DNA of 7,271 nt from the IMG/VR virus record IMGVR_UViG_2706794698_000014. One strand, 5' to 3'. Position 1 is the first letter of the stretch. Each line of letters starts with the position of its first letter. Source of the DNA: a virus (taxonomy: Duplodnaviria > Heunggongvirae > Uroviricota > Caudoviricetes). This document shows positions 1 to 7,271 of this stretch, piece by piece. The notes below the pieces were generated by a model. It was not told where the DNA came from and did not search any database. It saw only the letters and a program-made list of their open reading frames with translations. A program made the translations under genes and the position numbers.

Positions 1-151
1 CTTCTTGCTCCTCAATCCATTAAAATCTCAGCAATAGTAGTTGTTACGTCCGCCACTGGCTCAGAGCTGACTATCCGCTAAATTTAGCTCAGTGCCGTAG
101 CTGTGTCAGAACAAACCTAAGCCGAAACCGTTTATTACAAAACAATAAATA

Positions 152-850
152 TCAGGGTTTAAAATCCAGCACCCCATTTTGAAATACTTTATATACTTCC
201 GGCGAAGGGGGGGCAGGTATATCAGCATTCTTTATCGCATTCATCGCTTCACGACATAAATCGAGGTCTCCACTTTCTCTTTTAACCTCCAGTAGAAGGC
301 CATTCGGGGCCATATGCATTCTCAGTGTACACTCTTTTCCTGAATACTTACTCGCATCCCCGAACTGTTTTTCGATGGCGCTCTTGATTTGATGGGCATA
401 CAGACGGATATCCTCACTAACATCAGAAGTACGTTCAGATGAACTCACATACTGTGTCTCTATTGCTTTATCGGAGTAATATGATGTACGGTCATGATAA
501 TTTGTCGATACAGNNNNNNNNNNNNNNNNNNNNNNNNNNNNNNNNNNNNNNNNNNNNNNNNNNNNNNNNNNNNNNNNNNNNNNNNNNNNNNNNNNNNNNN
601 NNNNNNNNNNNNNNNNNNNNNNNNNNNNNNNNNNNNNNNNNNNNNNNNNNNNNNNNNNNNNNNNNNNNNNNNNNNNNNNNNNNNNNNNNNNNNNNNNNNN
701 NNNNNNNNNNNNNNNNNNNNNNNNNNNNNNNNNNNNNNNNNNNNNNNNNNNNNNNNNNNNNNNNNNNNNNNNNNNNNNAAATGTTCGTGATACCTGTCGG
801 CGACAGAAAAGGTTAATGGTATCACCCCACCGCACAGGGGGATTCACCAT
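152..850 (-). CDS. TolA C-terminal (domain III)-like protein, likely prophage cargo gene. Stop codon at 152-154; the C-terminal ~120 codons (152..513) are well supported. The N-terminal part lies in the masked block and the true start is uncertain.
   Basis: Open frame through the unmasked stretch 152..513. The translated C-terminus (…YAHQIKSAIEKQFGDASKYSGKECTLRMHMAPNGLLLEVKRESGDLDLCREAMNAIKNADIPAPPSPEVYKVFQNGVLDFKP) matches, from memory, the C-terminal domain of E. coli TolA (…YAGQIKSAIESKFYDASSYAGKTCTLRIKLAPDGMLLDIKPEGGDPALCQAALAAAKLAKIPKPPSQAVYEVFKNAPLDFKP). The ATG at 848-850 has no Shine-Dalgarno in front of it, so the start may be inside 514..778. Confidence 0.6.
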   Translation of the reverse strand: MVNPPVRWGDTINLFCRRQVSRTFXXXXXXXXXXXXXXXXXXXXXXXXXXXXXXXXXXXXXXXXXXXXXXXXXXXXXXXXXXXXXXXXXXXXXXXXXXXXXXXXXXXXXXXXXVSTNYHDRTSYYSDKAIETQYVSSSERTSDVSEDIRLYAHQIKSAIEKQFGDASKYSGKECTLRMHMAPNGLLLEVKRESGDLDLCREAMNAIKNADIPAPPSPEVYKVFQNGVLDFKP

Positions 851-1367
851 GCAGGAGTTTTCTTAGCAAACTCACTGCGCGCCCGGCAACTCCCAACCAC
901 ATAAAATGCGGAGTTTGTGGCATTTATGCATATAACTCGCAGGAATTATCTTAAAAAACTGATGTCGATCCGGATTAAAAAGAAGCAGGTCATCATCAGA
1001 TGACTGGAAAAAAGGAAAACAAAAAATACTCATCATACAGTTTTGATTGCAGGGATGAGCCTGCTATGCACAATATGCAGAATATAAGCAAGATAAAAAT
1101 ATGCAGGCATATTATTTCGGATCTTGTTATTAACACAACCTTTTTAATAATCATTTGGCATACAATAAACCAGCCCAAAAACATATTGTCCCGCTAAACA
1201 GCGAATTACAAACCACCCTGCAATGATCTCTCATCTCATTTTATATGAGTTGACGACATCAGGATAACGCATCATCAGCCCCTGCCAAGAAATATCAAAA
1301 CTCCCGCCAGCAATGTGTTATCACAATATTGTAAAAAAAACACAGCACCGAAACTATAACTGGTCTC

Positions 1368-1376
1368 TGTTATAAT
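1368..1376 (+). promoter_or_regulatory. Candidate extended -10 promoter element (TGtTATAAT) on the plus strand, reading toward the terminator at 1434-1460
   Basis: Consensus TATAAT at 1371-1376 preceded by TG at 1368-1369. No good -35, which an extended -10 can tolerate. No protein ORF lies downstream before the terminator. Confidence 0.3.
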
Positions 1377-1433
1377 TTGGAGCAGAAAGACCAGTTGCCC
1401 AACTAGCAGCATTCTCCCCTGCTTTCCTGACGT

Positions 1434-1460
1434 AAAAAAACCGCATTAAGCGGTTTTTTT
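1434..1460. terminator. Bidirectional intrinsic terminator: A7 - CCGC ATTAA GCGG - T7
   Basis: Seen directly: aaaaaaaccgcattaagcggttttttt. The GC stem is flanked by an A-run on one side and a T-run on the other, so it can terminate on either strand. It sits about 80 nt downstream of the Q-like gene on the minus strand, where a tR'-type terminator is expected. Confidence 0.6.
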
Positions 1461-1540
1461 ACGATGTCCATGTCTGCAATCCGCCTCGCGATACAGCTTT
1501 GCGAAGCATAGCAAAATTGAAGCAGTTTATACGTAAGAAA

Positions 1541-2083
1541 TCAAGCCATTTTCTCAGCAAATGATTCACGCATGGGAATATATAGGGCATACTCAGCAAC
1601 AGCTAACCAATTAGCAATCCGTTTTTCGCATGTGCTAAAACACCACTCTGGGTGTGCATCATTTAGCAATTCAGCCATTTTGCGCTTAGTCATCCCCCGC
1701 CCTTCATAGCGTTGCCGGAGAATGCAAATCAATCCTGGATGCTCTGCCAGCACCTCACTTATGACTCGATCAATACATAACGCCTCTGCATCAGTACAAT
1801 GCGCCAGCCAGCTCTTTTGCTTGCCGTTGATCATCTCTCGCAAAAACGCTTCCAGCTCAGCTTTCTCTATTCCCGCTTTTTTCATTCTGCGCAGGGCTTC
1901 ATTAATGGCTGTTTTCGTCAGTTTTTTGGATGCCAACAACTGATTGAACATATTCCCTGACCTGCCACCGCCAATATACGACCAGCGCCCCCACATACGT
2001 AGTTTTCCCTGAATCCAGACACTTTCCAGCGTGGTGAGGCGAAGGTGTTCTCCGCTTTTTCCTGTATTCGTTGGGTAAATCAT
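1541..2083 (-). CDS. Phage late-gene antitermination protein Q-like (Q82/Q21-type family), 180 aa
   Basis: ATG at 2081-2083 overlaps the TGA of the upstream gene (ATGA); an AAAGG Shine-Dalgarno sits 6 nt upstream. Position (last gene before a terminator, directly after a YbcO-like gene) and remembered resemblance to Q-family antiterminators of E. coli prophages (e.g. QuuD-like WG.W N-terminal motif). Assignment is from memory, not a search. Confidence 0.55.
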   Translation of the reverse strand: MIYPTNTGKSGEHLRLTTLESVWIQGKLRMWGRWSYIGGGRSGNMFNQLLASKKLTKTAINEALRRMKKAGIEKAELEAFLREMINGKQKSWLAHCTDAEALCIDRVISEVLAEHPGLICILRQRYEGRGMTKRKMAELLNDAHPEWCFSTCEKRIANWLAVAEYALYIPMRESFAEKMA

Positions 2084-3935: not shown

Positions 3936-4091
3936 TTACTTCCTGGATTCGTAGTCTACGAAGACAGCGACCTCCGTCTGGCCGGTTCGGATTCGTACCT
4001 CACAGAGGTCTTTCCTCGTTACCAGTGCCGTCACTATGACGGTTAAACAGATGACGATCAGGGCGATTAACATCGCCTTTTGCTGCTTCAT
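3936..4091 (-). CDS. hok: Hok/Gef-family type I toxin (small membrane toxin), 51 aa: MKQQKAMLIALIVICLTVIVTALVTRKDLCEVRIRTGQTEVAVFVDYESRK
   Basis: ATG at 4089-4091 with an AAGGAG Shine-Dalgarno 9 nt upstream; stop at 3936-3938. The first ~45 residues match HokD/RelF of E. coli Qin as I remember it, with a divergent C-terminus. The 70-aa ORF in the track is an in-frame upstream extension (mok-like). Confidence 0.85.
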   Translation of the reverse strand: MKQQKAMLIALIVICLTVIVTALVTRKDLCEVRIRTGQTEVAVFVDYESRK

Positions 4092-4139
4092 AGCCTGCTT
4101 CTCCTTGCCTTTCGGCATGTAAGAGGCTAACCTACATGT

Positions 4140-4215
4140 GCAAAGCATGAAATTGGCCTCAGATTAATGTTAAGCGTCTTGCCGGACGCGTAATGTTAAC
4201 TGGGGCTTTTCTCTA
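4140..4215 (+). ncRNA. sok: Hypothesised Sok-like antisense RNA opposite the hok leader and upstream (mok-like) initiation region; boundaries approximate
   Basis: Inference from hok-locus architecture. A possible plus-strand promoter (TTGCCT 4105-4110, 17-nt spacer, TAACCT 4128-4133) would give a transcript antisense to the upstream in-frame ATG at 4146-4148 and its GAGG Shine-Dalgarno. An imperfect hairpin around 4171-4194 and a T-rich run at 4207-4215 follow. No direct evidence of the RNA. Confidence 0.2.
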
Positions 4216-4267
4216 TCTGCCTTTTGGTGTTCATGCCTGAAGCAGATAGCCTCAAGCACCCGCAGTC

Positions 4268-4318: not shown

Positions 4319-5005
4319 TCACTCCTTCTCTTCTTTACCGTAGTGGAGTTGACCAATTTTGATAAGAGGGCGTCCCTGAGATTTGCGGTGTAGATTGGTA
4401 TCGCGCAGAGAATACACACAGCCACAATATTCCTGCTGATAGAATTTTTCGCGCTTGCTGATTTCAATCATACGGGACGAGCCGCCCTGCTTGCGCCAGT
4501 TATAATCCCAGTACACCATGCCCGGATAATGCGCGACGGCTCGCCGCCCACAGTCGTTAACCTGCTGCATATTTTTCCAGCGTGAAATGCCCAGTGAACT
4601 GCTGATCACACTGAAACCATTTTCAGCGGCGTACAGCGCTGTCCGCTCAAAACGCATGTCAAAACACATGGTGCAACGGATCCCTCGTTCGGGCTCCCAT
4701 TCCATTCCTTTGGCTCGTTCAAACCAGTTGTCTGTGTCGTAATCAGCATCAATAAACGGCACGCCGTGTTGTTCAGCAAAGCGAATATTCTCATCCTTAC
4801 GAATTAAATACTCTTTCTGAGGATGAATGTTCGGGTTGTAGAAAAAGATGGTGTAGTCGATTCCCGAGGCCTGAAGCGCCTCCATCACCTCACCGGAACA
4901 TGGAGCACAGCAAGAGTGCAGTAGTAGTTTGTTTGCCCCGTTTGGGAGCTCCAATTTGGGCCGTTTGAAATCAGCAACTGTCATAAATATGTTTATTGGG
5001 GTCAT
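4319..5005 (-). CDS. DUF208 / QueH-like protein (epoxyqueuosine reductase family homologue), 228 aa
   Basis: Translation contains [11 protein letters not shown] near the N-terminus, a central C-x-x-C (IRCTMCF) and a C-terminal EYCGC, which I recall as conserved cysteine motifs of the DUF208/QueH family. No clear Shine-Dalgarno before either ATG (5003-5005 or 4982-4984), so the start is uncertain. Confidence 0.5.
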
Positions 5006-7192: not shown

Positions 7193-7271
7193 TCCTTCCT
7201 GAAATAGAATGGCATCAGAAGGAGCTAATAATGAGCAGAAAAACCCAACGTTACTCTAAAGAGTTCAAAGC
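7167..7271 (+). mobile_element. Left end of an IS3-family insertion sequence (IS600-like), continuing beyond the window
   Basis: An orfA-like start lies 64 bp in from a TGAGG… terminus, the usual IS3-family layout. A GGACAC motif at positions 21-26 from the proposed end matches the same offset in the IS3 left inverted repeat as I remember it. The exact boundary is inferred. Confidence 0.55.
7231..7271 (+). CDS. IS3-family transposase OrfA, N-terminus (MSRKTQRYSKEFKA…), truncated by the window edge
   Basis: ATG at 7231 with AAGGAG 6 nt upstream. The …YSKEFKAEA… helix-turn-helix signature is typical of IS3-family OrfA (IS600-like from memory). Confidence 0.6.
   Translation, partial: MSRKTQRYSKEFK

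Follow-up and report, generated by a model that had tools for sequence, protein, structure and literature searches.

What could a prophage gain from a gene that encodes the tip of TolA detached from the rest of that protein? The question is raised by a gene, here called p1, in the leftmost part of a 7,271-nt stretch of DNA (hereafter the window) from the IMG/VR virus record IMGVR_UViG_2706794698_000014. The recognisable genes of the window all lie on the minus strand and belong to a lambdoid (Rac-like) prophage of E. coli, at the junction of its early-right and late regions. An earlier inspection of the sequence by eye (the original prediction) had placed at 152-1200 a single cargo gene of up to 232 aa ending in a domain related to domain III of TolA (TolA III), and had suggested that a free periplasmic copy of this domain might act as a decoy. 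The gene recognised here is encoded on the minus strand at 152-580 and specifies a predicted lipoprotein of 142 aa with a TolA III copy (visible part identical to WP_000506936.1). The reading that we prefer, with a probability of about 45%, is that p1 would be a TolA decoy tethered under the outer membrane and uncoupled from TolQR, intercepting group A colicins and the g3p of filamentous phages.

The p1 protein consists of a signal peptide (residues 1-20, lipobox IIGC), a disordered tether (about residues 21-54) and a TolA III-like domain (residues 55-142). Its minus-strand frame ending at position 152 reads ...YAHQIKSAIEKQFGDASKYSGKECTLRMHMAPNGLLLEVKRESGDLDLCREAMNAIKNADIPAPPSPEVYKVFQNGVLDFKP on translation, which is the motif string from which the relationship with TolA had originally been proposed. 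The C-terminus matches the Pfam family TolA_C (PF06519) with 83.2 bits (E 1.5e-23, cutoff 25) over profile positions 4-96 of 96, p1 matches every solved chain of E. coli TolA domain III with an E-value of about 5e-28, and it is 60% identical to residues 336-421 of E. coli TolA in a gap-free alignment of 86 residues. An AlphaFold2 model of the visible mature protein has a predicted local distance difference test score (pLDDT) above 90 over the last 90 residues or so, and below 50 over the first 26. Using Foldseek, this model was superposed on 2x9a_B (TolA III from the complex with IF1 g3p) with a template modelling score (TM) of 0.96 and a root-mean-square deviation of 0.6 Å; 3qdp, 3qdr, 1tol and 1s62 are matched as well, with a probability of 1.0. 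The predicted fold is composed of two helices, two strands, two further helices and a last strand, with a pair of Cys aligned to the C363/C388 disulfide of TolA. Profile, identity and structure scores together indicate that the resemblance to TolA III is real and far beyond chance; the likeness first noticed by eye is thus borne out by the profile search and, as far as a predicted structure goes, by the superposition.

Orthology with TolA was considered and rejected on the grounds of domain content and genomic context. The copy stands alone without domain II, as had been claimed, and domain I is likewise absent from the 142-aa protein. In the place of TolA domain I (the N-terminal transmembrane helix that couples TolA to TolQ and TolR), p1 has a 20-residue lipoprotein signal peptide ending in IIGC; in the place of domain II (a long Ala/Lys/Glu-rich helix of about 250 residues that spans the periplasm), it has about 35 Ser/Thr/Tyr-rich residues from Cys20 to the domain, with pLDDT below 50. 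Since a lipoprotein signal and a tether replace domains I and II, p1 is predicted to be anchored in the membrane opposite to that of TolA, and to have no link to the proton-motive force. Whereas tolA is part of the tolQ-tolR-tolA-tolB-pal operon, p1 lies outside it, in a prophage cargo slot where its neighbours are the Q-position gene, the small RNA (sRNA) gene STnc100, a paralogue (p2) and genes for holin, lysozyme and spanin. What p1 has in common with TolA (1TOL, 2X9A, 3QDP/3QDR, 1S62) resides in its C-terminal 88 residues, which share the fold, the disulfide and strand beta3, and which largely keep the ColA site on beta2. The name 'TolA' given to p1 by the Prokaryotic Genome Annotation Pipeline (PGAP) is a threshold artefact, because the score of 75.6 bits exceeds the cutoff of the NCBIfam model TIGR02794 (59.45) despite a match restricted to the C-terminal positions 265-362 of 362. 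With NF007065, another NCBIfam model, p1 scores 107.8 and fails the cutoff of 213, covering positions 293-386 of 387.

The extent of p1 was established from unmasked relatives. Five blocks of the window are masked with N, and the block at 514-778 cuts both p1 and STnc100. Counterparts of window 1-1540 at 99.9% identity are present in 440 of the 5,426 complete E. coli genomes, and in such unmasked copies the p1 coding sequence has 429 nt and encodes 142 aa, which is equivalent to window 152-580. In one of them (NZ_CP020107, hereafter L001) it is annotated at 9152-9580, window 152-513 being identical to L001 9152-9513, and the 142-residue protein begins with MGFRSASILTLIISGIIIGCTDAVSTNYHDRT.... 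The masked block is 5 nt longer in the window than its counterpart in L001; the p1 frame is intact only if these extra 5 nt lie upstream of the coding sequence. The 232-aa open reading frame (ORF) at 152-850 proposed earlier was rejected on two grounds, namely the 142 aa given by the unmasked relatives and an Rfam match to STnc100 that covers its N-terminal part. Its ATG (848-850) lies inside STnc100, its N-terminus 'MVNPPVRWGD...' is a spurious translation through this sRNA gene, and the remainder of the feature as first delimited (850-1200) is outside p1.

The signal peptide of p1 (MGFRSASILTLIISGIIIGC), read from unmasked relatives, has Arg4 in its N-region and passes a lipobox pattern similar to PROSITE PS51257 (TLIISGIIIG-C20). 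In p1 variants with 65-75% identity the signal peptide is wholly different (MYCRAVPVLVLILASLTTGC) and the G-C junction is retained, the lipobox Cys being found in all full-length p1 variants. Asp at position +2 is the inner-membrane retention signal of E. coli lipoproteins; this position is occupied by Thr in p1 and all its variants and by Thr, Ala or Gly in p2, with no Asp. From this Thr, p1 is predicted to be sorted to the outer membrane by the Lol system; Cys20 is predicted to be lipidated. An export signal is thus present at the true N-terminus, of the lipoprotein type (lipobox IIGC), and in place of the free periplasmic domain first envisaged we predict a lipid-anchored, outer-membrane-targeted protein.

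Which ligands such a domain could bind was considered from the surfaces mapped on TolA III. Strand beta3 (A415-K420) is the beta-augmentation site common to the N-terminus of TolB, g3p-N1 and ColN, and the substitutions D418P and K420P abolish all of these interactions (PMC4339652; PMC7066135). ColA binds the opposite edge (L375-P380), with cation-pi contacts involving K368, K379 and K396 (PMC3365938). The affinity of TolA III is about 40 uM for TolB and about 1 uM for g3p and ColN, a gap of about 40-fold (PMC4339652; PMC7066135). All p1 variants keep the C363/C388 disulfide pair and are identical to TolA in beta3 (L417-D418-F419-K420); at the ColA site their beta2 reads LL(E/Q)VKR, with L375, L376, K379 and K396 kept and K368 variable. 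In p2, the disulfide and the Asp are kept, beta3 reads F-D-M-R and all three lysines that contact ColA are lost. A plasmid lineage of the IncF type, described below, keeps beta3 and not beta2, and most short relatives end with F-K-N-x-x-L-D-F-K/R. Across the family lineages mapped in this way, p2 excepted, no surface feature is conserved more widely than the TolB/g3p/ColN edge. The ratio of non-synonymous to synonymous substitution rates (dN/dS) between p1 and a 66%-identical variant is 0.36 overall, 0.24 in the domain and 0.59 in the tether; that of p2 across genera is 0.08-0.12 at dS 0.5-1.1, so that p2 is more conserved than p1. Given these values well below 1, p1 and p2 are regarded as maintained proteins and not as decaying fragments.

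With beta3 identical to that of TolA and most of the ColA site kept, a decoy is the hypothetical function that fits p1 best. In this mechanism, the TolA III domain would hang a few nanometres below the porins on its flexible tether of about 35 residues, as a decoy co-receptor uncoupled from both the TolQR motor and the proton-motive force. Group A colicins entering the cell (ColN and others at beta3, ColA at beta2) and g3p-N1 would dock on it with their TolA-binding epitopes, by beta-strand addition; invaders docked in this manner would never engage the real, proton-motive-force-coupled TolA, their import would stall and the lysogen would be tolerant. Since TolB is bound about 40-fold more weakly, the decoy could, at a modest level, trap invaders and leave Tol-Pal functional. 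A low level of p1 might be expressed in the lysogen from a promoter-like site located just upstream, to which Q-dependent read-through would add during late lytic growth, and the diverged paralogue p2 may widen or change the ligand specificity. The complex of If1 g3p with TolA (2x9a) is the best structural match of p1. A study by Levengood-Freyermuth et al., in J Bacteriol in 1993, is reported to have found that E. coli over-producing TolA domain III in the periplasm becomes leaky and tolerant to colicins.

The original prediction described a single cargo gene; its cargo nature stands, and the gene has a tandem partner. This partner, p2, also specifies a TolA-like lipoprotein, of 131 aa (MGLKKIVMLTFWVGFVAGC...), and window base 1 is the first base of its GTG start, the body of the gene lying beyond the left edge of the window (L001 8606-9001, minus strand; the 131-aa form is the cluster representative P0047). 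The intergenic region between p1 and p2 (1-151, minus strand; L001 sequence) contains the GGAG ribosome-binding site of p2 at about 9-12. The p2 protein has the N-terminus MGLKKIVMLTFWVGFVAG-C and a C-terminal TolA_C domain (Pfam, 55.6 bits); it is 31% identical to p1 and 34% identical to TolA III, and PHROGs places both p1 and p2 in phrog_5772, 'unknown function'. The linker of p2 is strongly conserved (C-x-PLHPS-x-CHKTTATGSCSSGRWDDQDEWG), with two extra cysteines and an acidic W-x5-W motif; this motif (SSGRWDDQDEW) loosely recalls the TolB-box epitopes of colicins.

The cassette was surveyed in 80 IMG/VR proviral loci having p1 at 99% identity or more. Its order is near-invariant: STnc100, 111 nt, p1, 154 nt, p2, holin, lysozyme. 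p2 follows p1 at a constant spacing of 154 nt in all 77 viral loci with enough sequence, and STnc100 is linked to p1 in 74 of 78. The antiterminator gene upstream is of the DUF1133 type at 39 of the 80 loci and of the unrelated PF03589 type at 34, and two types of lysozyme accompany the cassette, which thus has the moron trait of a discrete module set behind two unrelated antiterminator genes. A terminator-like hairpin was detected by consensus scan after p2 and before the holin gene, and the lysis set of the prophage (holin, endolysin, spanin) is complete. The p1-p2 pair was found in 775 of the 5,426 complete E. coli genomes, and the exact p1 sequence on at least 1000 contigs. Among 50,697 phage genomes searched by tblastn, p1 was detected only in mEp460_ev081, which has the p1-p2 pair and in which the region upstream is unrelated, so that deposited phage genomes under-represent the gene relative to IMG/VR prophages; the BFVD viral structure library gave no match to the p1 model.

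The location of p1 between antiterminator and lysis genes agrees with the post-Q cargo position first assigned to it. A 66%-identical variant, P0028, occurs alone, in the order Q, TfpB, AraC-type regulator, two tRNA genes, variant, NanS-p esterase, DUF1378, DUF826 and holin; the slot between the Q-tRNAs and NanS-p is the position of stx in Stx phages. The p1 cassette and the stx1/stx2 cargo thus share a genomic slot between Q and the lysis genes and STnc100 as neighbour, the variant being located exactly between tRNA genes and nanS-p, and the p1 cassette is proposed to follow the same dual transcription logic (own promoter plus Q-dependent read-through) as stx. While stx encodes a toxin, p1 is predicted to specify an envelope lipoprotein acting on the bacterium itself. 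The lambdoid cargo genes bor and lom are located elsewhere than in the Q-to-lysis slot.

Relatives of p1 and p2 extend well beyond prophages. An exhaustive HMMER search gave 333 cluster representatives at E <= 0.001, many of them of 110-160 aa. A strict lipobox test was passed by 36 of the 53 short relatives examined; the remainder comprises a few with variant lipoboxes or ordinary signal peptides and several fragments of real TolA. The p2 type is much more widespread than p1, with 372 clusters in Citrobacter, Enterobacter, Klebsiella, Raoultella, Serratia and Salmonella. In Enterobacter it is fixed in the chromosome, flanked by a glutathione peroxidase gene and a gene of the RidA family, in Citrobacter it is found near a prophage edge, and one p2-type locus adjoins a GmrSD and HEPN gene pair. 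It is also carried by about 600 plasmids: in IncI1 plasmids it lies on the same strand as the relaxase gene nikB and 67 nt after it (L018 7004-7435), and in a pO157-type plasmid beside a nikB remnant and toxB (L017 7003-7434). A third lineage, also of lipoproteins (...LLITAC), is present on about 310 plasmids, mostly conjugative IncFIB/IncFII plasmids of Klebsiella. In one of these (L019 5217-6246) the 144-aa lipoprotein gene directly follows a gene for a thioredoxin-fold protein, and a few kb away lies a gene pair for an ATP-binding protein and a UvrD-type helicase that has the look of a defence system. Two further architectures were found, P0170 (L020 1856-2563), which has a lipobox followed by TonB_C and then TolA_C and adjoins a phage-type DNA methylase gene on a short contig, and P0167, in which a signal peptide is combined with two TolA_C domains. 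In a crude neighbour-joining tree of the 90-residue domains, built with no support values, the TolA_C domains of both are closest to E. coli TolA.

IncI1 plasmids specify the I-pilus, which is the receptor of phage If1, and IncI1 and IncF plasmids alike specify pili used by filamentous phages. Carriage by such plasmids, the defence-type neighbours and the TonB_C-TolA_C fusion fit a protection of the living carrier better than a role in lysis, and the fusion also fits a mimicry of the energy-transducer tips used by invaders. A broader class can be outlined from these data, with some hesitation and as a generalisation that we rather doubt: mobile elements of the Enterobacterales (lambdoid prophages, IncI1/pO157 and IncF plasmids, genomic islands) might carry outer-membrane-tethered TolA (and some TonB) C-terminal 'energy-transducer tip decoys' conferring broad tolerance to Tol-dependent (and Ton-dependent) bacteriocins and pilus-specific filamentous phages, with p1 and p2 covering different epitopes. 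Both the domain family and the use of exclusion lipoproteins by mobile elements have precedents; the searchable literature describes no natural mimic of the TolA co-receptor domain that is anchored by a lipid. Small lipoproteins that are accessory cargo of mobile elements include the FhuA blockers Llp of T5 and Cor of phi80 and N15, lambda Bor and plasmid TraT; p1 is predicted to be on the periplasmic face of the outer membrane and is likewise proposed to be protective. Llp and Cor plug a surface receptor, whereas p1, which has no sequence relationship with them, would mimic a periplasmic co-receptor and titrate the epitope of the invader. The same principle, by which a detached copy of one partner blocks Tol or Ton import, underlies laboratory dominant-negatives (exported TolA III, exported TonB C-terminal domain, periplasmic g3p-N1 or colicin T-domains); these are soluble, over-produced and cause leakiness, whereas p1 is natural, predicted to be lipid-anchored and selectively maintained.

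Several points weigh against the decoy interpretation. The start codon, signal peptide and lipobox of p1 correspond to masked bases (514-580), so that the signal peptide is that of the 99.9%-identical genomes, and the p1 promoter-like site is a consensus match only. A decoy would also bind the TolB N-terminus, with possible harm to the cell. The paralogue p2, which is more conserved than p1 and more widespread, fits a simple decoy less well with its altered beta3 and its lost lysines, and the fixed p2-type gene of Enterobacter, which has no mobile-element context, would also suit a housekeeping role in the envelope. A PADLOC search with five family members (E <= 0.01) gave no matches. The original prediction was aware of no characterised function, and the searchable literature gave no functional study of a p1-type protein, several apparent hits being to chromosomal tolA or to the surname Tolar; the PHROGs annotation is 'unknown function', and the source clusters have automated names.

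The alternative that deserves most attention, even if we hold it to be unlikely, is a modulation of Tol-Pal itself. The tethered TolA III copy would bind the TolB N-terminus or another native partner, which would reduce the mobilisation of Pal, loosen the outer membrane and cause hypervesiculation, in effect a partial tol phenotype; strong late expression would then aid lysis, or the release of phage or cargo. That p1 directly precedes the lysis cassette, shares its strand and belongs to the late operon is what this explanation would lead one to expect, and so is a beta3 (the TolB site) identical to that of TolA (PMC4339652). In addition, tol mutants hypervesiculate, and a modulation of TolB interactions has been proposed as a means of vesicle regulation (PMC7391070). 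However, the binding of TolB to TolA III is weak (about 40 uM), the prophage already possesses a full holin-endolysin-spanin set, and both a promoter-like site and a terminator-like hairpin belong to the cassette itself. The role in lysis is further weakened by the relatives on plasmids, in defence-type islands and at fixed chromosomal loci with no lysis genes nearby, and the strong purifying selection on the chromosomal copies argues for a role in the living cell instead. The plasmid relatives could on their part point to conjugation or the pilus (mating-pair stabilisation, entry exclusion or relaxosome anchoring), the prophage copies being incidental. This would account for the p2-type gene just downstream of nikB in IncI1 plasmids and for the third lineage on conjugative IncF plasmids of Klebsiella, but prophages and chromosomes account for the majority of copies, the pMS7163B study by transposon-directed insertion site sequencing (TraDIS) does not list the gene as required for conjugation, and in the conjugative IncI1 plasmid pESBL nikB is directly followed by trbC, without the p2-type gene (PMC4288162); we therefore regard it as very improbable.

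Two further explanations are scarcely tenable. The literal version of the original prediction, a soluble and free periplasmic TolA III domain of up to 232 aa, is right about the C-terminal domain, and ordinary signal peptides, not of the lipoprotein type, do occur in a few of the short and distant relatives; but the true coding sequence of 142 aa begins with a lipoprotein signal and a conserved lipobox, and the 90 extra N-terminal codons are an sRNA gene and a promoter region, which makes it hardly credible for p1. That p1 is a non-functional leftover, the decaying fragment of a captured tolA mislabelled by annotation pipelines, comes close to negligible in our estimation: PGAP does say 'TolA' where only the last 98 or so of 362 model positions match, and truncated or frameshifted copies are many in the databases, but dN/dS is well below 1 at dS 0.5-1.1, variants with a replaced signal peptide still have the lipobox, many diverged clusters share the architecture, and the exact sequence recurs widely among contigs.

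If p1 is indeed a decoy, an unnoticed protection against colicins and filamentous phages would be present in about 1 in 7 sequenced E. coli strains, in O157:H7 (by way of pO157) and on many resistance plasmids of the IncI1 and Klebsiella IncF types. This would bear on strain competition in the gut, on antimicrobials based on colicins or engineered filamentous phages, and on plasmid persistence; co-receptor mimicry would join the known exclusion strategies, and p1 would be a natural reagent for probing the engagement of TolA with TolB at the outer membrane. Two corrections hold regardless of function: 'cell envelope integrity protein TolA' is a misleading PGAP label for these 142-aa proteins, and the region upstream of p1 is to be read as the STnc100 sRNA gene and not as coding sequence.

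STnc100 (Rfam RF02076) extends over about 696-882 on the minus strand, its 5' half (779-882) being visible and its 3' half masked. In L001 a full-length match at 9691-9877 reaches 86.6 bits (gathering score 47), and window 779-882 alone gives a 3'-truncated match of 36.5 bits (E 7e-7). Window 831-850, once reverse-complemented, gives the sequence of a PCR primer published for STnc_100, and in Stx2 phages STnc100 is located 75 nt after stx2B (PMC12370729). It ends 111 nt before the p1 start codon, and may be a separate transcript, a leader of the p1 mRNA or a module-boundary element. The promoter-like site (TTGAGC-18 nt-TATAAT, 10 of 12 sigma-70 matches, minus strand) was detected by consensus scan at L001 9610-9639 and corresponds to window 610-644; it is wholly within the masked block, so that its coordinates are transferred from L001 with an uncertainty of up to 5 nt. 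It is situated about 30 nt before the ATG of p1 and is followed by a GAGGA ribosome-binding site, which is also masked in the window.

The AT-rich upstream spacer described earlier does exist, as a non-coding segment at about 905-1180 with a G + C content of about 35% (43-49% in the flanks) and a weak hairpin at 989-1004. It is situated between the terminator and STnc100, further up than had been supposed, since what lies immediately upstream of p1 is the sRNA gene and then the promoter-like site. An 89-bp segment (L001 10175-10263) with a promoter-like site and a terminator-like hairpin (AACCGCCTGTTTAGGCGGTT and then a run of T) is missing from the window between 1179 and 1180, and is present in the 20 best-matching E. 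coli genomes (20/20). Given its absence from the window, late-promoter read-through into the cassette may vary by strain.

The assignment of p1 to a position downstream of Q and a terminator was confirmed. The Q-position gene (1541-2083, minus strand) encodes 180 aa and belongs to the DUF1133 family (Pfam, 356 bits), its match to Phage_antitermQ being marginal (26.1 bits, cutoff 26); in other prophages a bona fide PF03589 antiterminator has the same position relative to the cassette. A bidirectional intrinsic terminator (A7-CCGC...GCGG-T7) was identified at 1434-1460, annotated on the minus strand, 81 nt downstream of this gene and thus in the tR' position of the late operon. It was missed by a simple terminator scan and found by direct folding (dG -19.7 kcal/mol, z -5.2, none of 200 shuffled sequences folding as well). 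Weak, sub-threshold isrK-like Rfam hits (about 21 bits) were obtained on both strands at window 1460-1540 (L001 10518-10591); they would fit a short pR'-tR' leader transcript like that of Gifsy-1.

The gene content of the remainder of the window comprises a DnaC-like gene, DUF977, QueH, hok/sok, DUF1367 and YbcO, in addition to the DUF1133 Q-position gene. The hok/sok type I toxin-antitoxin locus is located at 3936-4261 on the minus strand (Hok ORF 79.9 bits with Pfam, sok RNA 117 bits with Rfam). A homologue of QueH (epoxyqueuosine reductase, PF02677, 220 bits) is encoded at 4319-5005 on the same strand, between the replication and nin-like regions, and is a tRNA-modification gene that is unusual as phage cargo. 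At the right edge, an ORF on the plus strand starts at 7229 (MSRKTQRYSKEFK...) and runs off the window end at 7271; we take it to resemble the start of orfA of an IS3-family transposase.

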